A DNA stretch of 64,000 nucleotides from Polyangiales bacterium (GTDB lineage: Bacteria; Myxococcota_A; Polyangia; Polyangiales; JADJQN01), in contig CAXNJO010000010.1 of assembly GCA_964202905.1 (NCBI GenBank), forward strand, positions 1 through 64,000. Reading direction: 5' to 3'. The stretch's first letter is position 1, and every line of letters starts with the position of its first letter. A program made the translations under genes and the position numbers. Under the pieces are notes generated by a model. It was not told the origin of the DNA, made no database searches, and worked only from the letters and a program-made list of their open reading frames with translations. This document shows positions 5,204 through 32,973 of this stretch, piece after piece.

Positions 5204-7885
<2,682 letters not shown>

Positions 7886-9662: not shown

Positions 9663-11396
9663 ATGCTCACGTGTCTCAGGGTTCGCGACTTCGCCATCAT
9701 CGATCGCCTCGAGGTCGAGCTCGGACCGGGCCTGAACGTCGTCACCGGCGAGACGGGCGCCGGCAAATCGATCCTCATCGACGCGCTCTCGCTCGTGCTC
9801 GGCGCGCGCGCGCGGCCCGAGGTCGTCCGCAGCGGCGCAGAGAGCGCGGAAGTCGAGGCGCTCTTCGATCTCGAGGGCGCCCCCGAGGTCATCGCGCGTC
9901 TCGAGGCCGCGGGCATCGAGGTCGCAGGCGGTGACGCAGGCGGCGAGCTCGGCGAGCTCGTCGTGCGCCGCGTCGTGCAGGCCAACGGCCGCACGCGCGC
10001 CTACGTGAACGGCCGCCTCGCGACGGCCTCGCAGCTCGCGGAGCTCGCGGCGGGGCTCGCGGATCTCTCGTCGCAGCACGAGCACCACTCGCTGACCGAT
10101 CCCGCGACGCACCTCGCCTACCTCGACGCGTTCGCGCAGCTCGAGGGCGAGCGCACCCGCATCGCGCGCGCCTACGAGGCCTACCGCGACGCGCAGCACG
10201 CGCTCCAGCGGGCAGCGGGCGCCGAGCGCGGGCGCGAGGAGCGCGAGGATCTGCTCGCGTTCCAGCTGCGCGAGATCAGCGACCTCGCCCCCGAGCCCGG
10301 CGAGAAGGACGCGCTCCGCGCCGAGCGCGAGGTGCTGCGCCACGCCGAGCGACTCGCGCGCACGACGGGCACCGCCGAGGACGCGCTCTACGGCGCAGAC
10401 GGCGCGGTGTGCGAGCTGCTCGCGCGCGTCGCGGGCGACCTCAGCGACCTCGGCCAGCTCGACGCGAAGCTCGCGCCGCTCGCCGAGGCCCTCGGCGACG
10501 CCTGCGCCCGCATCGAGGACGTCGCCCGGGAGCTCGGCCGCTACGCGCGCGGCGTGACGGGCGATCCGGACCGCCTCGCCGAGGTCGAGGAGCGCCTCGA
10601 CCGCCTGGCCCGCCTCGAGCGCAAGTACGGCGGCAGCCTCGAGGCCGTGCTCGCGCACGCCGCGCAGGCCCGCGCCGAGCTCGACGCGCTGCAGAACCAC
10701 GAGGCCCACCTCGCCGGCCTCGAGGCCGCGCGCGACGCCGCGCAGGGCGAGGCGCGCACCGTCGCGCAGCGGCTCTCGGAGCGCCGCCGCGAGGCCGCCG
10801 TCGCGCTCGGCCGCGCCATCACCGACGAGCTCGCGTCGGTCGGCATGGGCGGGAGCGAGGTGCGCATCTCCGTCGCGCCGCTCGAGGTGCGTCCGTCGGC
10901 CGAGGGCCGCGTGGAGCTCGAGCTCGACGGCGCGCGGCTCGGGCCGACGGGCATCGACCGCGCGGAGCTGCTCATCGCGCCGAACCGCGGCGAGGAGCCT
11001 CGTCCGCTGCGGCGCATCGCATCCGGCGGCGAGCTCTCCCGCGCGCTGCTCGCGATCAAGCGCGTGCTCGCGGGGCTGCGGCCTGCGGGGCTCTACGTCT
11101 TCGACGAGGTCGACACCGGCGTCGGCGGCGCGGTCGCCGAGGTGATCGGCCGCAAGCTGAAGGACGTCGCGCGGCACCACCAGGTGCTGTGCATCACCCA
11201 CCTGCCGCAGATCGCCGTCTACGCCGACACGCATTTCCGCGTCAGCAAGGAGGTCGTCGACGACCGCACCCGCAGCGCGATCACGCCCCTCGATTCGGGT
11301 GAGCGCCGCGAGGAAGTGGCGCGGATGCTCGGCGGCCTGAAGATCACCGCGAAGACCCGCGCGGCCGCCGCGGAGATGCTTCGCGAGGCGCGCTGA
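9663..11396 (+). CDS. recN: DNA repair protein RecN
   Basis: Walker A TGETGAGKS, ASGGELSR signature, FDEVDTGVGG, QVLCITHLPQIA. Confidence 0.97.
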   Translation: MLTCLRVRDFAIIDRLEVELGPGLNVVTGETGAGKSILIDALSLVLGARARPEVVRSGAESAEVEALFDLEGAPEVIARLEAAGIEVAGGDAGGELGELVVRRVVQANGRTRAYVNGRLATASQLAELAAGLADLSSQHEHHSLTDPATHLAYLDAFAQLEGERTRIARAYEAYRDAQHALQRAAGAERGREEREDLLAFQLREISDLAPEPGEKDALRAEREVLRHAERLARTTGTAEDALYGADGAVCELLARVAGDLSDLGQLDAKLAPLAEALGDACARIEDVARELGRYARGVTGDPDRLAEVEERLDRLARLERKYGGSLEAVLAHAAQARAELDALQNHEAHLAGLEAARDAAQGEARTVAQRLSERRREAAVALGRAITDELASVGMGGSEVRISVAPLEVRPSAEGRVELELDGARLGPTGIDRAELLIAPNRGEEPRPLRRIASGGELSRALLAIKRVLAGLRPAGLYVFDEVDTGVGGAVAEVIGRKLKDVARHHQVLCITHLPQIAVYADTHFRVSKEVVDDRTRSAITPLDSGERREEVARMLGGLKITAKTRAAAAEMLREAR

Positions 11397-11453
11397 AGGC
11401 TGCGGACGCGCACCGGCCTGCGCAGGTCTTGCACCCCGAGCGCAAGGCCTGCG

Positions 11454-11879
11454 TCAGCCGCCCGCCGCCGCGAACGCCGTGGCGGCGATCGGCGCCGCCC
11501 GCGCGACGCGCACCCGCTCGAGTTCGAGCGTCAACTCCGTGTAGACGAGCGGCTTCGTGAACACCGCGCGGATGCGCCCCGTGTGGCCCGCGATGCGCGC
11601 GATGATCTCGGGATAACCCGTCACGACGACGACCTCCACGCCGGGATCGCGCGAGCGCGCGTAGCTCGCGACCGCCAGCCCATCGGCGTGCGGGAGGTTG
11701 TAGTCGACGAGCACGACGTCCGGGGCGGGCGTGCGCGCAAGCCGCCCGATGGCCGACGCGCCGTCGATGACGACCTCGACGTCGTAGCCGTCCTCGCGCA
11801 GCAGATGCGCGAGGATCCGGGCGTCGGAGACGTCGTCCTCGACGACGAGCACACGCAGCGGGTCGGAGCGAACGTCCAT
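11454..11879 (-). CDS. Stand-alone response regulator receiver protein
   Basis: VLVVEDD...DVVLVDYNLPHADG...VVVTGY...FTKP; ATG at 11879. Confidence 0.85.
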   Translation of the reverse strand: MDVRSDPLRVLVVEDDVSDARILAHLLREDGYDVEVVIDGASAIGRLARTPAPDVVLVDYNLPHADGLAVASYARSRDPGVEVVVVTGYPEIIARIAGHTGRIRAVFTKPLVYTELTLELERVRVARAAPIAATAFAAAGG

Positions 11880-11894
11880 CTGCGTGCAGAGGTG

Positions 11895-11910
11895 TGCACG
11901 GCTCGGGCCG
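11895..11910 (-). promoter_or_regulatory. Possible sigma54 -24/-12 promoter for the receiver gene
   Basis: Minus strand CGGCCCGAGCCGTGCA (GG-N10-GC). Weak match, and it would leave only a very short leader. Confidence 0.3.
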
Positions 11911-12019
11911 TTGCACGCCTCCGGCGTATCTCCTTGCGCGGAGGCCCTCGTCTGCGCGTCCGGCGCGCCATCGCGCGGCCCGATGCGGCCGCCCGATGCG
12001 CACCGGAACACACCTGCGG

Positions 12020-13063
12020 TCAGACCTTCGGGCGCAGGCTCCGCACCTGATCGCCCGCGCGCCAGACCTCCGCGGCCTCGATCTCCGCGAGCTCCGCGCC
12101 GAGCTTCGCGCGGTAGTTCGGGTCCGTGCCCGCAGCGATGACGACGCGCGCCTCCTCGCCGGTACGCACGCGCTCGTAGAGCTGCTCGAAGACGGGCAGG
12201 CTCGCCTCGCGGAACTTGTGCCGCCAGTCGAGCGCGCCGCGCTGCGCGGTGACCGAGGTGTTGGCGAACATCCACGCCATGCCCTTCTCGCCGATGAGCG
12301 GCACGAGGCTCTCGGTGAGCTCCTCGACCGTCTCGTTGAACGCCTCCGACGGCGAGTGCCCGTTGCGCCGGAGCACGGCGTACTGCGCCTCGATGAGGCC
12401 CGCGAGCGCGCCCATGAGCACGCCGCGCTCGCCCGTCAGGTCCGAGAAGACCTCGCGCTGGAAGTCCGTCTCGAAGAGGTAGCCCGAGCCGATCCCGATG
12501 CCGAGCGCGAGCGCGCGCTCCGCCGCGCGACCCGTCGCGTCTTGGAACACCGCGTAGCTCGAGTTGAGGCCCTTGCCCGCGAGGAAGAGGCGACGCAGCG
12601 AGGTGCCGCTGCCCTTCGGCGCGACGAGCACGACGTCGATGCCCTCGGGCGGAACGATGCCCGTCTGCTCGCAGAAGGTGATGCCGAAGCCGTGCGAGAA
12701 GTACAGGCACTTCCCCGGCGTGAGGTGCTCGCGCACCGTCGGCCAGGCCGCGATCTGCCCCGCGTCCGAGAGCAGATACTCGATGGTCGTCGCGCGCGCG
12801 CAGGCCTCGGCGATGCCGAAGAGCGTCTCGCCGGGCACCCAGCCATCGGCGACGGCGCGATCCCAGCTCGGCGTGCCCACGCGCTGCCCGACGATCACGC
12901 GGAAGCCGTTGTCGCGCAGGTTCAGCGACTGCCCCGGCCCCTGCACGCCGTAGCCGACGATCGCGATCGTCTCCTCGGCGAGCACGGCCTTCGCCTTCTC
13001 GAGCGGGAACTCCTCCCGCGTCACGACGTTCTCCCACACATCGCCGAACTGCATCCTCGCCAT
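12020..13063 (-). CDS. ilvC: Ketol-acid reductoisomerase (Bacteroidetes/fungal Ilv5-like type)
   Basis: GYGVQGPGQSLNLRDNG, VAPKGSG, EVFSDLTGERGVLMG, EAFNETVEE; GAGG RBS before ATG 13063. Confidence 0.95.
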   Translation of the reverse strand: MARMQFGDVWENVVTREEFPLEKAKAVLAEETIAIVGYGVQGPGQSLNLRDNGFRVIVGQRVGTPSWDRAVADGWVPGETLFGIAEACARATTIEYLLSDAGQIAAWPTVREHLTPGKCLYFSHGFGITFCEQTGIVPPEGIDVVLVAPKGSGTSLRRLFLAGKGLNSSYAVFQDATGRAAERALALGIGIGSGYLFETDFQREVFSDLTGERGVLMGALAGLIEAQYAVLRRNGHSPSEAFNETVEELTESLVPLIGEKGMAWMFANTSVTAQRGALDWRHKFREASLPVFEQLYERVRTGEEARVVIAAGTDPNYRAKLGAELAEIEAAEVWRAGDQVRSLRPKV

Positions 13064-13150
13064 CGTTCCTCCTCGTGGGTCACGCACCGCGCGACCTCGA
13101 CAATCCCAGCGCGCCGCGACGCCGCGGCCCGCGATGCGCAACACCGTCGC

Positions 13151-13717
13151 TCAGTCGCCGTGACCCGAAGCCGCCTCGAGCTCCGCGAGGAACGACTCGA
13201 GCGGGCGCATCGGCCGCGTGAGCGCGACGCGCCCGGAGCGCACGAACTCGGCGATGCCGAAGGGCGCGAGCGCGTGAAAGAGCGCCGTCGTCTGCGTCTC
13301 GGTGCCGGTCTGCTCGAGCACGATCATCGCCTCGCTCTGCTCGAGCACGCGCGCGCCGTGCGCAGCGACCACCGCGTCGAGCGCCGCGCCCGCGTGTCGC
13401 CCGTCGAGCTTGTAGAGCGCGAGGTCGCGCACGAGCACATCGCCTTCGCCGTGCACGAAGGCCTTGAGCACGTCGACCTGCCGCTCGAGCTGCGCGGCCA
13501 CCTTGCGGGCCTGCGCCGCGCTCACACGCACGACGATCGTGAAGCGGTGCACGCCGGGCACCTCGGAGTCCGATACCGTGAGGCTCTCGATGTTCAGGCA
13601 GCGCCGCGTGAAGGTCGCCGTGACGCGGCCGAGCAGACCGACGCGGTTCTCGGTGAAGACGGAGAGCGTGTGCTCGCTCGCGACTTCGTGCCCCGGATCG
13701 TAGAAGACCATCGTCAT
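13151..13717 (-). CDS. ilvN: Acetolactate synthase small (regulatory) subunit
   Basis: ACT domain TLSVFTENRVGLLGRV..FTRRCLNIESLTVS; C-terminal EFVRSGRVAL; ATGA overlap with ilvB. Confidence 0.9.
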   Translation of the reverse strand: MTMVFYDPGHEVASEHTLSVFTENRVGLLGRVTATFTRRCLNIESLTVSDSEVPGVHRFTIVVRVSAAQARKVAAQLERQVDVLKAFVHGEGDVLVRDLALYKLDGRHAGAALDAVVAAHGARVLEQSEAMIVLEQTGTETQTTALFHALAPFGIAEFVRSGRVALTRPMRPLESFLAELEAASGHGD

Positions 13718-15450
13718 GCCTCGAGGCGAACGTCCGACACGGACGACGCGGAAGGGACCATCGGGAACACGTTGCCCTCGCGCTCGACGACGACCTCGAG
13801 CAGGTACGGGCCGGGATGCGCGAGCATCGCGTCGAGCCCCGTGCCGAGCGCCTCGCGCGTGTCGACGCGCTGGGCCTCGATGCCGTACGCGCCCGCGATG
13901 CGGACGAAGTCGGGGTTCTGCATCTCGGTCTCGGAGTAGCGGCTCTCGTAGTAGAGCTCCTGCCACTGCCGCACCATGCCGAGGAAGCTGTTGTTGAGGA
14001 TGACGATCTTCACGGCGGCGCCCGACTGCATCGCCGTGCCGAGCTCCTGCATCGTCATCTGAAAGCCACCATCTCCGATGATGGCGACGACCGTGCGCTC
14101 GGGACACGCGAGCTTCGCGCCGATCGCCGCGGGCAGCGCGAAACCCATGGTGCCGAGCCCGCCCGAGGTCACGCTGCTGCGCGGCGCCTCGAAGGCGCTG
14201 TAGCGCGCCGCGGCCATCTGGTGCTGGCCGACGTCGCTCACGACGACGGCCTGTCCGCCCGTCTTGCGCGAGATCGCGTGGACCACCTCGCCCATGCGGA
14301 GCTCGGGGCCCTCCGGCTCGAGCTCGCGCGCGACGACCTTCTCGTGCTCGATGGCGTCGCAGGCGTGGAACTCCGCGATCCAGGCGGGGTAGCGGCGCTC
14401 GGCGAGCCGCGGGAGCAGCGCGGTGAGCACGTCGCGCGCGTCGCCGTGGAGCGCGACCTCGGGCTTCACGTTCTTGCCGATCTCGGCGGCGTCGATCTCG
14501 ACGTGGATGACGCGCGCCTGCCGCGCGTAGCGCGAGAGATCGCTCGTCACGCGGTCGTCGAAGCGCATGCCGATGGCGACGAGGACGTCGCACTCGTTGG
14601 TCTTGATGTTCGCGCCGTAGCGACCGTGCATGCCGACCATGCCGACGTACTGCGGATGGCTCGTCGGGAAGGCCGAGAGCCCGAGCAGCGTCGAGGCGAC
14701 CGGCGCGCCGGTGCGCTCGGCGACCGCGAGCAGCGCGCGCTCCGCGCCCGAGAGCACGACGCCCTGCCCCACCACGAAGAAGGGCTTCGACGCGCCCGCG
14801 AGCAGCTGCGCGGCGGCGTCGAGCGCGGGCTCGCTCACGCGGGGGCGCGGTACGTACGCCCGGATGCGCGTGCACGGCGTGTGGCGGAAGGCGACGAGCG
14901 CGCCCTGCGCGTCCTTCGTCAGATCGATGAGCACGGGCCCGGGGCGCCCCGACCGCGCGATGAAGAAGGCGCGCGCGACGGCGGGCGCGATGTCCTCGGC
15001 GCGCGTGACCTGCACGTTCCACTTGGTGAGCGGCGCGGTCACGTTGACGACGTCCGTCTCCTGGAAGGCGTCGGTGCCGAGCAGCGACGAGGGCACCTGC
15101 CCCGTGATGCAGACGATCGGCGTCGAATCGATCTGCGCGTCCGCGATGCCGGTGACGAGGTTCGTCGCGCCCGGGCCTGACGTCGCGATGCACACGCCGA
15201 CGCGACCGCTCGCGCGCGCGTAACCCTGCGCGGCGTGCACCGCGCCCTGCTCGTGGCGCACGAGCACGTGGCGCAAGCGGTTGCGGTGGCCGTGGAGCGC
15301 GTCGTAGACGGGCATGATCGCGCCGCCCGGATAGCCGAAGAGCAGGTCGACGCCCTCTTCGATGAGCGCGAGCACGAGCGCCTCGGCGCCGCGCACGAGC
15401 GGCCCTTCCGCGACGGAGTCTTCGGGAGAGTGCGAGTGGGAGTCGGTCAT
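13714..15450 (-). CDS. ilvB: Acetolactate synthase large subunit
   Basis: FGYPGGAIMP, RHEQGA, TSGPGATN, ThDP motif GDGGFQM...NNSFLGMVRQWQ. Confidence 0.96.
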   Translation of the reverse strand: MTDSHSHSPEDSVAEGPLVRGAEALVLALIEEGVDLLFGYPGGAIMPVYDALHGHRNRLRHVLVRHEQGAVHAAQGYARASGRVGVCIATSGPGATNLVTGIADAQIDSTPIVCITGQVPSSLLGTDAFQETDVVNVTAPLTKWNVQVTRAEDIAPAVARAFFIARSGRPGPVLIDLTKDAQGALVAFRHTPCTRIRAYVPRPRVSEPALDAAAQLLAGASKPFFVVGQGVVLSGAERALLAVAERTGAPVASTLLGLSAFPTSHPQYVGMVGMHGRYGANIKTNECDVLVAIGMRFDDRVTSDLSRYARQARVIHVEIDAAEIGKNVKPEVALHGDARDVLTALLPRLAERRYPAWIAEFHACDAIEHEKVVARELEPEGPELRMGEVVHAISRKTGGQAVVVSDVGQHQMAAARYSAFEAPRSSVTSGGLGTMGFALPAAIGAKLACPERTVVAIIGDGGFQMTMQELGTAMQSGAAVKIVILNNSFLGMVRQWQELYYESRYSETEMQNPDFVRIAGAYGIEAQRVDTREALGTGLDAMLAHPGPYLLEVVVEREGNVFPMVPSASSVSDVRLEA

Positions 15451-15460
15451 CGTCGTCTCC

Positions 15461-17134
15461 TCAGAAGCGATCGGTGAGGCAGCCCTCGGACGCCGAGGAC
15501 ACGGTGCGCGCGTAGCGGCGCAGCACGCCGTGCACGCCCGGTAGCGGGCGGGGCGCGAGCGCAGCCCGGCGCAACGCGAGCTCCGGCTCCGGGACTTCCA
15601 GCACGATCGTCAGCGCCTCGGCGTCGATGGTGATCCGATCCCCATCGTGCACGAGGGCAATCGGCCCACCGTCCTGCGCCTCGGGCGTGACGTGTCCGAC
15701 GACGAAGCCGCGCGTGCCGCCGGAGAAGCGACCATCGGTGATGAGCGCGACGTCCTGCGCGAGCCCGGCGCCCACGATCGCGGCCGTGGGCTTGAGCATC
15801 TCGGGCATGCCCGGCCCGCCGCGCGGCCCCTCGTAGCGGATCACGACGACGTCGCCCTTCTGGATCTTCCCCGCCGCGATCGCGTCGTTCGCCGCGTATT
15901 CGCCGTCGAAGCAGCGCGCGGTGCCCGAGAAGCGCACGCCCTCCTTGCCCGTGATCTTCGCGACGGCGCCCTCGGGCGCGAGGTTTCCGCGGAGGATCTT
16001 GAGGTGCCCCGTCGGCGAGATCGGGCGCTCGAGCGGGCGCACGACCTCCTGACCCGCCGGGAGCGCCGGCAACGCGGCGAGGTTCTCGGCGAGCGTGCGC
16101 CCCGTGATCGTGAGGCAGTCGCCGTGCAGCAGGCCTGCGTCGAGCAGGAGCTTCATCACCGCGGGCGTGCCGCCGATCGCGTGCACGTCCTCCATGAGGT
16201 ACGGGCCGCTCGGCGCGAGGTCGCCGAGGAGCGGCGTGCGCGCGCCGATCCGCGCGAAGTCGTCGAGCTCGAGCGGCACGCCGAGCGTCCGCGCGATGGC
16301 CAGCAGGTGCAGCACGACGTTGGTCGAGCCGCCAAGCGCGGTCACGAGCGTGATGGCGTTCTCGAAGGCCTCGCGCGTCATGATCCGACGCGGCGTCAGC
16401 GCTTCGACGAGCAGCCCGTGCATGCGCGCGCCCGCGGCCTCGCACTCCGCGCGCTTCTCGGGCGCGAGCGCCGGCGTCGACGAGGAGTACGGCAGGCTCA
16501 TGCCGAGCGCCTCGATCGCGCAGGCCATCGTGTTGGCCGTGTACATCCCGCCACACGAGCCGGCGCCCGGGCACGCGTGCTCGATGATCGCGCGGAACTC
16601 CGCCTCGTCGATGCTGCCCGCGAGCCGCGCGCCGTGCGCCTCGAACGCGGAGACGACATTGAGCTTGCGCCCCTTGTAGCGGCCCGACGCGCTCGCGCCG
16701 CCGTAGACGAGGATCGCGGGGCGATCGAGGCGCGCCATCGCCATCATCGCGCCGGGCATGTTCTTGTCGCAACCGACGACGGCGACGAGCCCGTCGTAGC
16801 TCTGCGCGGAGACGACGGTCTCGATCGAGTCCGCGATCACCTCGCGCGAGGGCAGCGAGTAGCGCATCCCGGGCGTGCCCATCGAGATGCCGTCGCTCAC
16901 GCCGATCGTGTGGAAGACGAGCCCGATGAGGTCGGCGCGCAGCGTGCCCTGCTTCACGACGCGGGCGAGGTCGTCGAGGTGCAGGTTGCACGGGTTGCCC
17001 TCGTAGCCCGTGCTGACGATGCCAATCTGGGGCTTGTCGAGGTCGGCGCGCGTGAGGCCGACGGCGTGCAGCATCGCCTGCGCGGCGGGCTGCGAAGGAT
17101 CCTGCGTGACGGTGCGGCTGTAGCGGTTCAGCAC
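15461..17134 (-). CDS. ilvD: Dihydroxy-acid dehydratase
   Basis: [53 protein letters not shown] start with GAGGAG RBS. Confidence 0.96.
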
Positions 17135-17280
17135 GGGTCGACTCCTCGTGCGCGGGTTGAACGAGCGTTCATCGCCGGACGCCCACCAGAGCCGCGCGGG
17201 CGTCCTGATGGCACGTCCGCAGGGCCCGCGCACGACGCAGTGCGTGAACCTGCGCGGCAATCCGCGGCTGTCCGCCGCGG

Positions 17281-18692
<1,412 letters not shown>

Positions 18693-18696
<4 letters not shown>

Positions 18697-20309
18697 GCGC
18701 GCCTCCCGTCGTCCGTCCCCGTCACGCGGCGCAGCGTGACACGAAAGACCGTGCAGCCGGGGCGGCTCTCGACGTCGATCGTCCCCTCGTGATCGGTGAC
18801 CACGCGGTGCACGATCGCGAGGCCGAGCCCGGTGCCGTGAGGCTTCGTCGAGTAGAACGCGTCGAAGATCGGCGCGTCGGGCGCGGGCAGCCCAGGGCCC
18901 TCGTCCTCGATCTCGATCAACACCGCGCGCGGCGTCCGACGCGTGCGGAGCACGACGCGCCCGCCCCCGATCGAGGCCACCGCGTCGACCGCGTTGCGCA
19001 TGAGGTTGAGCAGCGCCTGCTCGATCTTCTCGGGGTCGACGTCCGCGATCGGATCTTCGACGGCGAGGTCACGCTCGACCCGCACCGCGCCCCCCTCGGC
19101 GTCGGCGCCGACCATCGCGAGCACGCGCTCGCACACCGCGTGGATCGACGCGGGGCGGCGCTGCGGCGGGTTGGGCCGCGCGAACACGAGGAAATCCTTC
19201 ACCAACGTCGAGAGCCGCCGGATCTCGTCGCCGACGAGCGTCACCGCCTCTTGCAGATCGTTCTCCGCGCCCGTGCGACGCAGCGCGCGCTCGAGGAAGG
19301 TGACGTGCAGCAGCGCGCCATTGAGCGGGTTGCGGATCTCGTGCGCGAGCCCCGCTGCGAGCGTCCCGAGCGACGCGAGTTTCTCGCTGCGCAGCGTGCG
19401 CTCCGCCAGCGCGCGATCGTCGGTGACGTCGCGCCCGATCGCGAAGAGCACGACCCCCGCGTCGTCGCGGCTCGGCGCGTACGTCAGGCGCCAACGCACG
19501 AGACGCTGCCGCCGTGAGCGCGTCTCGACGTCGACCTCCCAGGACTCGGGCGCCGGCTCCCGCCCCGCGGCGATCGCCGCGAGCCGCGCCCCCTCGCGCT
19601 CACGCAGGTCCTCGGGGAGCAGCACGTCGGCGAACGCCCGCCCGAGCACCTCCTCGCGCGTCAGCCCGGTGAGCTGCTCGGCGGCGCGGTTGAAGAGCGT
19701 GATCTGCACGCCCACGTCGAGCCCCACGACGAGGACGTTCGCGAACTCGACGGCGTTCGCGTAGCGGTGCTCGCTCTGCGCGAGCTGCGACGCGAGGCGC
19801 TCGCGCTCTTCGCGGCCGGGCCGCTGCATGCGCTCGACGAGATCGTCCCGATACGTCTCGAGCATGATCGCGAGCTCGAGGTCGAGGATCCGCGCCAGCG
19901 CGAGCCGCGTCGCCGCGCGCTCCGGCTCGGGCACCGCGTCTGCGAGCGCGTCGAGCGACGCGCGGATGAGCGACATCGCCGTGAACATGTACCGCTGCGG
20001 CGCACCGATGCGGACGTGCACGCGCCCGATCTTCGCGCGCTCCAAGAAGTACGCCTCGTCGTGTGGCCCGGCGAAGAGCCGCTCCATCCACGCGACGAGC
20101 GAGCGGCGGAGCCTCGAGATCTGGGCCTCGTCGCGGAAGACCGCGTGCGCGTCCTCGTGCTCGCGCACCCGCTCGTAGAACTCGGCGGTGATCCGCTCGA
20201 AGTGCGGCGCGGCGAGCGGCGCGAAGTGCGCGAGGAGCGCGCTGTCCGCCGGGCCGAAGCGGGCGTAGCGCTTGATCTCCTCAAAGAGGGTTTCGTCGTT
20301 GGTGTCCAC
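18693..20309 (-). CDS. Globin-coupled (protoglobin)-PAS sensor histidine kinase
   Basis: N-terminal sensor globin pattern (ITAEFYERV...[15 protein letters not shown]), PAS ([16 protein letters not shown]), H-box AHEIRNPL, HATPase NLMRNA/DEGPG/GTGLGL. Start estimated at GTG 20309. Confidence 0.9.
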
Positions 20310-20395
20310 GCGCGCGGCGACTATAGCCGTGCCCGGCGAGACGCGGCGCGCGCCGACGACGACGAGCCCCAGGGCACACGTCGAGGGAGCCGCCG

Positions 20396-20824
20396 TCAAC
20401 TCGCTTCGGCGAGCGAGAGCGCGAGCGCGCGGAGCGCGTCGACCGTGGTGAACACGCTGACGACGCGCCCATCTTCCTGCACCACCGCAGAGCCGAGCGC
20501 GCGCTCGGCCATGTGCGAGGCGACCTCGGAGAGCGGCGAGTCGGGCCCGACGACGTAGACCTCCCCGGTCATCGCGTCGTCCACCGTCAGCGTGCCCGGC
20601 ACCACGTCGCGCAACCCGTCCACGAGCGCGAGGTCGCGATCCGAGAGGACGCCGACGAGCCGCCCGCCCTCGAGGACGGGCAGGTGCCGGATGCGGTGAT
20701 CGTGGAGCATCGCCTCCGCGACCGAGAGCGGCTGATCGCGCCCGACGGTGTAGGGCGCGAGCGTCATCGCCTCCGCGACCGTGCGTGGGAGGTAGCGGAC
20801 GCGCAGCGTGTCGTGGCCGCTCAC
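20396..20824 (-). CDS. CBS-pair domain protein
   Basis: IRHLPVL..GRLVGVLSDRDL plus a second CBS repeat; GTGA overlap with the sigma factor stop. Confidence 0.88.
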   Translation of the reverse strand: MSGHDTLRVRYLPRTVAEAMTLAPYTVGRDQPLSVAEAMLHDHRIRHLPVLEGGRLVGVLSDRDLALVDGLRDVVPGTLTVDDAMTGEVYVVGPDSPLSEVASHMAERALGSAVVQEDGRVVSVFTTVDALRALALSLAEAS

Positions 20825-21645
20825 GCGGCACACTCGTCGAGCGCGCTGCGCAGCTTCTCACATGCCTTCGACTCGATCTGCCGAACGCGCTCGCGGGAAA
20901 GGCCGAGCGCCTGGCCCACGACGCTGAGCGTGTCCGAGTCCTCGCTCGTGATGCGACGCCGCACGATCTCGCGTTCACGCTCGGTGAGCGCCTCGAGCGC
21001 ACGCCCGATGGCCTCCGACGAGCGCGCGCGCTGCTCGGCGTCCGCGACGAGCTGCTCCGGCGACCAGCCCGCGTCGACGAGCTCCATGCCGCCCTGATCG
21101 ACGTCGCCGACGACGACGTCGCGCTCGCGGAGCGCGGAGTCGACCATGCCGACGTCCTCGGGGAGCACCCCGAGCGCAGCCGCGACCTCCTCGCGCGTCG
21201 CGCGGCGCCCGAGCTGTTGCGCCAGCGAGCGCTCCGTGTCGCGCAGTCGGGCGAGCAGCTTGCGCGCCGCCCGCGTCGACGGCGTCGCGACGATGCGCCG
21301 GTTGGCGAGCGTCGAGCGCCGCACGTGCGCGCGGATCCACCACGCCGCGTACGCCGAGAAGCGCACACCGCGATCGGGATCGAAGCGCTGGGCGGCCTCC
21401 GCGAGTCCGACCATCCCCTCGCCGACGAGATCCTCGAACGGGACCCCGTGCTTCACGTACCCACGCGCGATGCGCAGCACGAGGCGCAAATGCGCGACGA
21501 GCAGCTTGTCGTGCGCCTTCCGAGACCCTCCGCGCGCCGCCGCCGCCAGCCGCTGCTCCTCCTCGAGGTCGAGGATGGGGGCGCTCTGGGCGCGTGCACG
21601 GAGCGTCCCAAGCGAGCCGAGCATGTTGTCTTGTCGAGCCGTCAT
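20821..21645 (-). CDS. Sigma70-family alternative sigma factor, RpoH/sigma32-like
   Basis: Region 2 DLVGEGMVGL..A..RFDPDRGVRFSAYAAWWIRA; degenerate RpoH box IVATPSTRAARKLLARLR; region 4 LSRERVRQIE. Confidence 0.88.
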   Translation of the reverse strand: MTARQDNMLGSLGTLRARAQSAPILDLEEEQRLAAAARGGSRKAHDKLLVAHLRLVLRIARGYVKHGVPFEDLVGEGMVGLAEAAQRFDPDRGVRFSAYAAWWIRAHVRRSTLANRRIVATPSTRAARKLLARLRDTERSLAQQLGRRATREEVAAALGVLPEDVGMVDSALRERDVVVGDVDQGGMELVDAGWSPEQLVADAEQRARSSEAIGRALEALTEREREIVRRRITSEDSDTLSVVGQALGLSRERVRQIESKACEKLRSALDECAA

Positions 21646-21677
21646 GTTCACGATCACCTCCCGCGGCGACTGCGCTT

Positions 21678-21694
21678 TGCAGCGGGGGTGCCAA
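21678..21694 (-). promoter_or_regulatory. Sigma54 -24/-12 promoter of the sigma-CBS-kinase-NtrC operon
   Basis: Minus strand TTGGCACCCCCGCTGCA (TGGCAC-N5-CTGCA) ~30 bp before the sigma factor start. An AT-rich IHF-like tract (~21703-21726) and GCGCA/TGCGC dyads (21747-21791) lie upstream. Confidence 0.75.
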
Positions 21695-21869
21695 CACCAG
21701 AAGCACTTGAAATCAATAGACATTTTGCCGAAACGGCGCCCCTCGACCGCAAGGCTTGCGCAGGTTGCACCGAGACACGCGCGCTTTGCGCCCGGGCCGC
21801 ACGGGCCCCTCGACCGGCCCCACGCGCGCGACGACGCGACGTCGACGAACCGGCGGCGCCGCGGACCGC

Positions 21870-23054
21870 TCAGCCGACCACGCGCGCGACGACGACCTTC
21901 AAGTAGTCGCCCTCGGGGAACGCCGCGAGGCGCGGGTGGTCGGCCGCGCCGCCGCCGCGCGTCAACACCTGCAGCGCCGCACCGGGGCGCAGCGCGACGT
22001 CCCGGAGCGTCGCGTCGAAGTCGTCGCGGTCGACGTGGCTCGAGCACGACGCAGCCACGTACAAGCCCGCGGGCGCGAGCACCTTGAGACACGCGCGGTG
22101 CAGGCTGCGGTAGCCCTCGAGCGCGGCCGGCAGCGCGCGCTCGCTCGGCGCGAAGCTCGGCGGATCGCACACGATGAGGTCCCAGCGCTCGCCCTGCGCC
22201 GCCGCCTCCGCGAGGAACTGCGGCACGTCGCTGACGACCCCGCGGTGCGTGGCGGGGAGCCCGTTCCGCGCCCACGTCGCCTGGGCGAGCTCGATCGCGC
22301 GCGGTGCGAGATCGACGGTGGTCACGGCAGACGCCCCCCCGAGCCCGGCCGCGACGGAGAAACCGCCCGTGTAGCCGTACAAGTTGAGGACACGGAGCCC
22401 GCGGGCGATCCCGCGCACCTCGGCACGCGACTCACGGTGGTCGAGGAACAGCCCCGTCTTCTGGCCGCCGTGTAGGTCGACGAGCAGCGTCATCCCCCGC
22501 TCGCGGACCGCGACGAGGGGGGGCGGCGCCGGGCCCCGCACGACCTGCACCGTGCGCGCCCCGCGCTTGCCGGTGCGCAGCAACACCGTGCCCACCCCGC
22601 GCTCGGCGAGCGCGGGCGCGAGCGCGTCGAGGAACACCGGCCGCCAGGCGTCCGCCCCCGCGCCATCGAGCTGCACGGTCGCGTACGCGCCGTACACGTC
22701 GCAGACGAGCCCGGGGACGCGGTCGCCCTCCCCGTGCACGAGCCGGTACGCGTCCGTGTCGGCGGGCACGACCCGCGCGCGCAGCGCCGCGGCCTCACGC
22801 ACCCGCGCCGCGATCAGCCGCGCGTCGACCGGCTCGTCCCGCGTCACGAACACGCGCACGCCGATCGGCCCCGCATCGGCGATTCCGCGCACCACGAAGC
22901 GCCCGCGCGCGTCGTGCACGGTGACCACGTCACCCGGCGCCGCGTCGAGCCCTTCGAGCGCCTCGCGGAACACCCACGGATGACCCGCCACGAGCGCACG
23001 CTCGAGCGGTTTGCGGAGCGTCGCCTGACGCGAAGGGAGAGGGCGGGCCGTCAC
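21870..23054 (-). CDS. RlmI/RlmK-like class I SAM-dependent rRNA methyltransferase
   Basis: GHPWVF, RLVHGEGDRVPGLVCD, GQKTGLFLDHRESR, VLNLYGYTGGFS, DPPSFA, ASCS. Confidence 0.9.
   Translation of the reverse strand: MTARPLPSRQATLRKPLERALVAGHPWVFREALEGLDAAPGDVVTVHDARGRFVVRGIADAGPIGVRVFVTRDEPVDARLIAARVREAAALRARVVPADTDAYRLVHGEGDRVPGLVCDVYGAYATVQLDGAGADAWRPVFLDALAPALAERGVGTVLLRTGKRGARTVQVVRGPAPPPLVAVRERGMTLLVDLHGGQKTGLFLDHRESRAEVRGIARGLRVLNLYGYTGGFSVAAGLGGASAVTTVDLAPRAIELAQATWARNGLPATHRGVVSDVPQFLAEAAAQGERWDLIVCDPPSFAPSERALPAALEGYRSLHRACLKVLAPAGLYVAASCSSHVDRDDFDATLRDVALRPGAALQVLTRGGGAADHPRLAAFPEGDYLKVVVARVVG

Positions 23055-24627: not shown

Positions 24628-32973
<8,346 letters not shown>

Follow-up and report, generated by a model that had tools for sequence, protein, structure and literature searches.

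A sensor module with a globin-PAS kinase and a very probably inserted ilvDBNC cassette in a Polyangiales bacterium

Why do genes for valine and isoleucine synthesis stand in the middle of a locus for a globin-type sensor kinase, a sigma54-dependent activator and an RpoH-like sigma factor? The question is raised by a stretch of 64,000 nucleotides from a Polyangiales bacterium (contig CAXNJO010000010.1, positions 1 to 64,000; hereafter the window), which represents contig C10 of a genome, G000, of 5.68 Mb in 19 contigs (94% complete, 73% GC). A sequence-only reading had proposed that the ilv genes and the sensor genes form one linked system for routing pyruvate under oxygen limitation. The analysis described here indicates that the locus is two things, a conserved oxygen-response module and an ilvDBNC cassette. 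The whole account that we favor, with more confidence than doubt, is a low-oxygen sensor module into which a cassette for ordinary valine/isoleucine synthesis was inserted.

The very probably inserted ilvDBNC cassette

Nine intact minus-strand genes were identified by Pfam and NCBIfam profile searches, all with the identities given in the sequence-only reading. They are flanked by an rRNA methyltransferase gene (rlmI) on the same strand and by the convergent recN.

20821..21645, minus strand: RpoH-like sigma70-family factor, 274 amino acids (aa), scoring below the RpoH cut-offs
20396..20824, minus strand: CBS-pair protein, 142 aa; its start overlaps the sigma stop; not at this place in the related genome G001
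18693..20309, minus strand: protoglobin-PAS-HisKA-HATPase kinase, 538 aa, with NmpS-type catalytic core and phospho-His323
17281..18696, minus strand: NmpR-like sigma54 activator (REC-AAA+-HTH), 471 aa, assigned by Pfam, NCBIfam and tree
15461..17134, minus strand: ilvD, dihydroxy-acid dehydratase, only copy in G000
13714..15450, minus strand: ilvB, acetolactate synthase large subunit of biosynthetic type, only copy in G000
13151..13717, minus strand: ilvN, regulatory subunit with ACT domain, only copy in G000
12020..13063, minus strand: ilvC, ketol-acid reductoisomerase (KARI) of Bacteroidota/fungal type, cofactor loop QRVGTPS, only copy in G000
11454..11879, minus strand: single-domain receiver of 141 aa, belonging to the conserved module
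11921..17280, minus strand: likely inserted segment of 5.36 kb that holds ilvDBNC, absent from G001

Start and stop codons overlap at three junctions (sigma/CBS, kinase/activator and ilvB/ilvN), in agreement with the translational coupling claimed for several of these genes. The spacing of ilvD and ilvB is 10 bp, and the remaining gaps are of 86 (CBS-kinase), 146 (activator-ilvD), 87 (ilvN-ilvC) and 140 bp (ilvC-receiver).

The only other genome of the same genus (G001, 80% complete) carries the order rlmI-sigma-kinase-activator-receiver-recN with approximately 80% DNA identity on both flanks, without ilv and without the CBS gene, and its activator and receiver genes are adjacent. The blastn alignment of the window with G001 ends at 11920 and restarts at 17342, and the activator stop codon is common to both; based on this break and the shared stop codon, the segment 11921-17280 was taken as extra DNA. 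A total of 80 loci of kinase relatives, the best 80 of 164 confirmed and not independent because many are from Sorangium or Nannocystis, were then compared. An NmpR-like activator was found in 66 of them, directly after the kinase in 46 (32 with at least 3 kb covered beyond), and kinase, activator and receiver were consecutive in 11, but an ilv gene was present in none of the 80, nor in five further kinase stretches. In the other genomes of the family (G001-G003, 80-94% complete), ilvC and ilvD were not found. Since activator and receiver are adjacent in G001 and in outgroups, insertion is far more parsimonious than precise loss. The metagenome loci of IlvC relatives, of which the best 80 of 204 were compared, include one, L172, that has the gene order ilvD-B-N-C-receiver-recN and 87% identity to the window over 4.6 kb; therefore the right junction exists in a second, diverged genome. 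From these comparisons there is little doubt that ilvDBNC was inserted between activator and receiver in one sub-lineage, and the event is likely to be a recent one. The proposal of a conserved system linking ilv to the sensor genes thus fails on synteny, and the link is lineage-specific and probably incidental.

The products of ilvD, ilvB, ilvN and ilvC score above the curated cut-offs of TIGR00110, TIGR00118, TIGR00119 and TIGR00465, respectively. The closest solved structure to the window IlvC is mitochondrial; the protein is 73-75% identical to Bacteroidota-named proteins, and its closest copies are in the myxobacteria G035 and G804 (84%). In a quick tree, it falls in a GC-rich clade (Shimodaira-Hasegawa approximate likelihood ratio test, SH-aLRT, 98) with Polyangiaceae- and Myxococcales-named proteins, which is nested in a clade (96) holding Bacteroidota-named proteins. 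This type of IlvC occurs in 14 of 401 genomes of the order and in 25 of 401 of the class sample. The cassette is of Bacteroidota type and was likely acquired horizontally, from a putative donor of that type. The GC content at third codon positions (GC3) and the codon use of the ilv genes are host-like; in codon adaptation, ilvC ranks at the 95th percentile among 3175 genes.

The operons of relatives read ilvE-D-B-N-C(-A), and the window cassette is without ilvE, ilvA and leader. In G035, ilvE-D-B-N-C-A is located on a contig other than that of its kinase, with no globin in the 20 kb around it; in G804, ilv and kinase are also on different contigs, the ilv contig being only 3.8 kb and beginning inside ilvB. 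Thirteen other contexts with an ilvC of this type contained no globin. The 146-bp gap before ilvD showed no leader rich in branched-chain amino acid (BCAA) codons in three frames, nor did it resemble the ends of ilvE or the spacers of related cassettes. In a GC-rich operon of a relative (L173:4750-4895), a short open reading frame (ORF) before ilvE contains consecutive Val codons and is a likely attenuator leader, and a weaker leader-like ORF rich in Leu, Val and Ile is present in G035 (L116, about 7120-7250). A single NmpR-type box upstream of the G035 ilvE was judged to be due to chance.

In predatory myxobacteria, ilvC and ilvD are missing (PMC4902038), and the gain of such a cassette would therefore relieve auxotrophy for valine and isoleucine. 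The leuC gene was not found in G000 or G035 (best scores of 100 and 108 bits, where the cut-off is 560). The LeuA and LeuB candidates did not reach the cut-offs; one LeuB-like gene fell just short, the LeuA candidate was scanned only in part, and panB was present in all five genomes tested. Both G035 (99% complete) and G000 hold the Val/Ile genes, with leuC found in neither. Repeated partial regain of branched-chain synthesis in myxobacteria is suggested.

The sensor module and its promoters

The globin domain of the window kinase aligns with that of AfGcHK (PDB 5OHE) over residues 6-157 (E 2e-39), and a PAS domain follows at residues 182-295 (Pfam). By this alignment, His98 and Tyr45 correspond to His99 and Tyr45 of AfGcHK, the proximal His and the distal Tyr whose roles are described in PMC8697598, so that the proposed sensing through heme is supported by conserved ligands. 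The globin and NmpU-type globins are approximately 45% identical and have their heme ligands in common. The named relatives of the kinase are mostly from Myxococcota, above all Polyangia.

The catalytic half of the kinase is different. In Myxococcus xanthus, as described in PMC6211767, oxygen turns NmpU ON, and the signal is inverted by NmpS, which is the sole kinase that phosphorylates NmpR; AfGcHK is activated by O2 (PMC8697598). Because NmpU and AfGcHK are ON in oxygen, it matters to which type the core belongs. In a careful tree of 33 kinase cores picked from the 80, with groups named after a first quick tree had been inspected, the window core grouped with NmpS-type hybrids (93/89) within a clade of 18 (100/98), and forcing it together with NmpU-type cores was rejected by the approximately unbiased (AU) test (p-AU 0.0004). 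The H-box sequences agree with the tree, being AHE(I/V)RNPLN versus (G/A)HELRNPLG. Upon search of G000, the window kinase was the best match for both NmpS-type queries (41-42% over PAS-kinase) and for one of two NmpU-type queries, the latter through its globin part. A separate NmpU, NmpT or NmpS was not found in G000 at its 94% completeness, nor an adjacent hybrid or dual receiver. Among 12 globin-kinase loci, four (L322, L324, L325 and L330) carry the published order of globin kinase, receiver(s) and hybrid REC kinase, and in L322 and L324 the activator comes next after the hybrid kinase. The NmpU-like nature that had been given to the window kinase therefore holds for its globin half and not for its catalytic half, and by sequence the sensor and the output kinase look like one protein, the Myxococcus NmpU-NmpS relay in one. 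Since three other globin kinases (L319, L323 and L016; two without a detected PAS, two beside an NmpR-like activator) branch at the base of the NmpS-type clade, fusion and fission are not distinguishable. A single-sequence structure prediction of the kinase gave a mean predicted local distance difference test (pLDDT) score of 42 and was not used.

Two protoglobins were detected in G000, the window kinase and a globin protein (C1:857527-857973, L332) with an anti-sigma-antagonist-like tail as judged by eye. In another locus (L041:4122-7161), a stressosome-like cluster of globin-STAS, STAS, kinase and SpoIIE genes adjoins Nmp-type genes.

The activator, which had been read as NtrC-type, can be placed more closely as NmpR-like, being 59-60% identical to the activators of U-T-S-R loci versus at most 48% to paralogues and in the same clade as the former (SH-aLRT 89). 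Its residues 225-230, in the sigma54-contact loop, read GSFTGA in place of the usual GAFTGA. The following sites were identified around the module.

21777..21791, minus strand: NmpR-type box S1, two mismatches to GCGCA-N5-TGCGC; in G001 at the same place with the same 15-bp spacing
21747..21761, minus strand: NmpR-type box S2, one mismatch, 15 bp from S1
21678..21693, minus strand: sigma54 -24/-12 promoter of the module, from a pattern scan; kept in G001
20320..20325, minus strand: TATAGT, candidate -10 of a basal kinase-activator promoter; same hexamer before the G001 kinase
11895..11910, minus strand: degenerate sigma54-like site ahead of the receiver gene, also present in G001 and L172
11420..11454, strand not assigned: two NmpR-type boxes with 5 bp between them, immediately behind the receiver stop and facing the convergent recN

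The sigma54 site at 21693-21678 is one of the two best minus-strand sites in 11000-22500 and the sole one of these between genes, in accordance with the sigma54 promoter proposed at the head of the block. The two boxes lie upstream of it, and both the GCGCA-N5-TGCGC sequence and this spacing are the binding consensus and preferred spacing of M. xanthus NmpR (PMC11841059). Among 33 loci with relatives of the sigma factor, 16 carry the box pair, 25 the sigma54 site and 14 both, these being the window, G001 and 12 more from three further families. For 3890 control genes of G000, in which the window sigma itself is not counted because its start was placed 78 nt upstream, the corresponding numbers are 40, 90 and 0. 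In the outside loci, the gene after sigma is that of a sigma54 activator in 19 of 28 cases. Genome-wide, box pairs with up to two mismatches are not above chance (15 in G000 against 14 for a control pattern; 3 against 10 in G001), and the weight of the window pair therefore comes from positional conservation; single sites were not used as evidence. The predicted autoregulatory step from sigma54 to an RpoH-like sigma factor, one part of the earlier proposal, is conserved as a pattern in four families of the order. The best NCBIfam models of the sigma factor are those of sigma32, at 191-200 bits against cut-offs of 241-323, and its RpoH box is degenerate.

A sigma54-type site lies ahead of 28 of 38 receiver genes (three of the 28, the window's included, match only a degenerate pattern added after the window's site had been seen) versus 60 of 1075 other genes. 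A box pair with 4-6 bp between its members is found after the stop codon in 21 of the 38 receiver genes versus 17 of the 1075 others; 11 of these 21 are from Sorangium and four from Polyangium, and the pair occurs in the window, L011, L172 and Sorangium, Polyangium and Labilithrix loci. In Sorangium, the pair can serve the next gene on the same strand, but in G000, G001 and L172 the next gene is the convergent recN. Enhancers downstream of sigma54 promoters have precedent, and the boxes in these three may represent a downstream enhancer of the receiver promoter approximately 460 bp off, or a retained relic. The receiver is probably a separate transcription unit, because of its own sigma54-type site in relatives and the strong hairpin after ilvC (see below), and therefore a nine-gene transcript is unlikely to be needed. 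In the related genome G002, the activator orthologue, cbb3 genes and two box pairs are clustered (C3:326027-346877). Taken together, it is highly likely that the globin-PAS kinase, NmpR-like activator, RpoH-like sigma factor, CBS protein and receiver make up a conserved sensor module of Nmp type.

Oxygen response, cassette transcription and competing readings

With respect to the targets of this module, the sole close-spaced box pair without mismatch in five genomes was found at C14:78104-78138 of G000, preceding P-type ATPase and cbb3 oxidase genes, and a pair with two mismatches is located in G002 approximately 4 kb upstream of ccoO. The neighbors of the kinase in relatives, for which 39 of 96 called genes were scanned, include cbb3 oxidase, Usp, CBS and hemerythrin genes, all gene classes of the NmpR regulon as given in PMC11841059. 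A regulon scan of G000 with the sigma54 pattern gave 45 intergenic pairs, most of them probably due to chance. These gene classes make it rather likely that the module is active at low oxygen, in which case the kinase would have to be inhibited by O2. The G000 cbb3 cluster (C14:71330-78879, L331) comes directly after a carbonic anhydrase gene, and its ccoN and P-type ATPase frames seem broken, probably by sequencing errors. In addition, rpoC (window 24628-28822) is distributed over several frames, and in other parts of G000 the aconitase and pntB genes are split as well; uncorrected assembly errors are likely for these three.

In the favored account, heme-bound O2 would keep the kinase off, or in phosphatase mode. 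Upon a drop in O2, the kinase would phosphorylate the activator directly. Targets induced by the activator would be the operon in which it lies, the genes for the sigma factor and the receiver and, on contig C14, the cbb3 oxidase cluster; the receiver would likely serve as a phosphate sink in feedback. Less confidently, the cassette would have come without promoter and attenuator, the kinase-activator transcript would read into it at a basal level, perhaps raised in hypoxia, and its output would be limited by valine feedback.

A number of points weigh against this account. The left junction (activator-ilvD) is seen only in G000. The clade of window-type and NmpS-type cores, at 93/89, is unstarred, and the labels 'NmpS-type' and 'NmpR-like' rest on gene order and domains, not on M. 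xanthus sequences. AfGcHK, the closest solved globin, is activated by O2, and the inverted polarity is drawn from regulon content only. In G002 (94% complete), the activator is present but no protoglobin was found. With respect to the cassette, a GC hairpin after the activator stop could end transcription before ilvD, the high codon adaptation of ilv is compatible with strong expression and hence with a flux role as well, pntB, the gene of a transhydrogenase beta subunit that is in pieces in G000, could feed NADPH, and since leuC was not found, the cassette would not restore full prototrophy.

Two structures bear on the transcription of the cassette.

17262..17280, minus strand: 7-bp GC hairpin without U-tract, directly after the activator stop; no terminator called
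11954..12017, minus strand: long hairpin after ilvC, candidate transcript end; spacer fold z = -4.4

A scan of 11300-22000 for sigma70 promoters and terminators gave none of either, which is uninformative at 73% GC. Because the cassette is without the ilvE, ilvA and leader seen in relatives, read-through from upstream into ilv is plausible, and we consider it slightly the better guess. The TATAGT before the kinase could give a basal transcript running on into ilv; the -10 motif was not enriched before kinases of relatives with the pattern tried (9 of 84 versus 9 of 68). The most serious competitor, which we regard as a distinct possibility though short of an even chance, is a cassette that is transcriptionally independent, with the hairpin ending the upstream transcript, an ilvD promoter within the 146-bp gap, and the neighborhood being pure position. 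It agrees with the hairpin and the structured gap (z = -2.3), with a short hairpin and U-run after the activator of G001, and with the sigma54-type site of the receiver in relatives, by which the ancestral transcript may have ended at the activator. However, neither a sigma70 nor a sigma54 consensus was found in the gap by scans that are insensitive at 73% GC, and no U-tract follows the hairpin.

It is rather doubtful that the kinase retains the polarity of AfGcHK, ON in oxygen, with the activator driving an aerobic program or another partner inverting the signal. The resemblance of the globin to the NmpU type, with its shared heme ligands, and the activation of AfGcHK by O2 would fit such a polarity, but the predicted targets and neighbors are low-oxygen genes, no NmpS-type hybrid was found elsewhere in G000, and the window kinase is the best match there.

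The sequence-only reading had also proposed the cassette as a sink for NAD(P)H. The beta2-alphaB loop of IlvC, QRVGTPS, contains Arg, Thr and Ser and none of the acidic residues that NADH-preferring KARI has at the phosphate-binding positions; by the cofactor rule in PMC5940873, an R/T/S loop is the NADPH pattern. The window IlvC is thus predicted to be of NADPH type, and such enzymes can use some NADH. IlvN keeps, by residue equivalence inferred from an alignment, the G-hydrophobic-hydrophobic stretch, changes in which remove feedback in Corynebacterium glutamicum (PMC8709942). Neither protein appears changed toward overflow. Based on the NADPH-type IlvC, the intact valine-feedback residues and the single gene copies, ordinary supply of valine and isoleucine is probable and is preferred to an electron sink, for which the case is weak.

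A form of the sink limited to this sub-lineage is regulon capture with a selected redox role, by which the cassette would have been kept at this site because ilvDBNC, when induced in hypoxia, channels pyruvate and reducing equivalents to valine/isoleucine or to branched keto acids; we consider it unlikely. In its favor, the cassette is co-oriented right behind the activator, neither a consensus promoter nor a leader nor a U-tract terminator was found, its right junction is retained in two genomes 87% identical, codon adaptation is high, leuC was not found, and pntB is present. Redox outlets through BCAA also have precedents, isoleucine synthesis having been proposed as an electron sink in Rhodospirillum rubrum (PMC8490811) and BCAA flux rising anaerobically in Streptococcus suis (PMC12707518). 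On the other side stand the absence of ilv from all 80 kinase loci and of globins from the other ilvC contexts and around the G035 cassette, the loop and feedback residues that are the same in unlinked relatives, and the fact that a sole ilv copy has to work in air, too. The combination of a one-kinase Nmp relay switched OFF by oxygen, a cascade from sigma54 to the RpoH-like factor and a captured, promoterless ilvDBNC selected as an oxygen-controlled electron and pyruvate sink is improbable, while its kinase half alone, a Polyangia one-kinase Nmp relay that is OFF in oxygen, has about an even chance. Finally, an assembly chimera, which frameshifts elsewhere in the assembly (rpoC, cbb3 and pntB regions) might suggest, is extremely improbable, because the diverged genome L172 has the same ilvC-receiver-recN junction, both boundaries are intergenic, and GC3 and codon use match the host.

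Comparison with known systems

The kinase is a more useful result than the ilv link. In Sorangium, Polyangium, Nannocystis and relatives, a globin is carried on an NmpS-type kinase beside the activator, and if O2 inhibits kinases of the window type, two architectures would use the same globin sensor at opposite polarity. The conserved RpoH-like sigma factor, lying under NmpR-type boxes, would add a second regulatory tier, and the insertion would be a natural example, open to dating, of the return of Val/Ile genes to a predator-type auxotrophic lineage within an operon under regulation. In a literature search by title and abstract, with most subscription papers outside it, no description of an NmpS-type globin-PAS kinase was found, nor of a globin-coupled sensor tied to ilvB, BCAA or sigma54. 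The main text of PMC11841059 contains neither 'ilv' nor 'RpoH'. S2 Fig of PMC6211767, which surveys Nmp homologues and mentions divergent domain architectures, may already show the one-kinase form.

The sigma factor belongs nearest to the RpoH (sigma32) family, its best models being sigma32, yet its scores are below the cut-offs. The cassette is similar to the Bacteroidota-type ilvE-ilvD-ilvB-ilvN-ilvC-ilvA operon in its D-B-N-C order and its type of IlvC, but is different with respect to the missing ilvE, ilvA and leader and to codon use adapted to a GC-rich host. The FixLJ system, in which a heme-sensor kinase inhibited by O2 induces cbb3 oxidase, provides an analogy of working, and FixL cores are among the matches to the window kinase; in the window, however, the heme would sit in the globin and not in PAS, the output is a sigma54 activator and not FixJ, and the polarity is predicted. 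AfGcHK of Anaeromyxobacter sp. Fw109-5 shares the globin domain with proximal His and distal Tyr, but its globin and kinase are directly joined, whereas the window kinase has an extra PAS and a core rejected from the NmpU-type clade. The closest counterpart is NmpRSTU of M. xanthus, which has, as described in PMC6211767 and PMC11841059, a protoglobin sensor with the heme-ligand His, a sigma54 activator whose operon is preceded by GCGCA-N5-TGCGC boxes at a spacing of 14-15 bp and includes a CBS gene, and boxes ahead of a P-type ATPase/cbb3 cluster; G000 shares these features. The window differs in that one globin-PAS kinase with an NmpS-type core replaces NmpU, NmpT and NmpS, the receiver is single, an RpoH-like sigma factor heads the operon, and ilvDBNC is inserted. 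Because separate NmpU, NmpS and NmpT were not found in G000, the window system is regarded as a variant of NmpRSTU that would work in a similar way, and not as a member.

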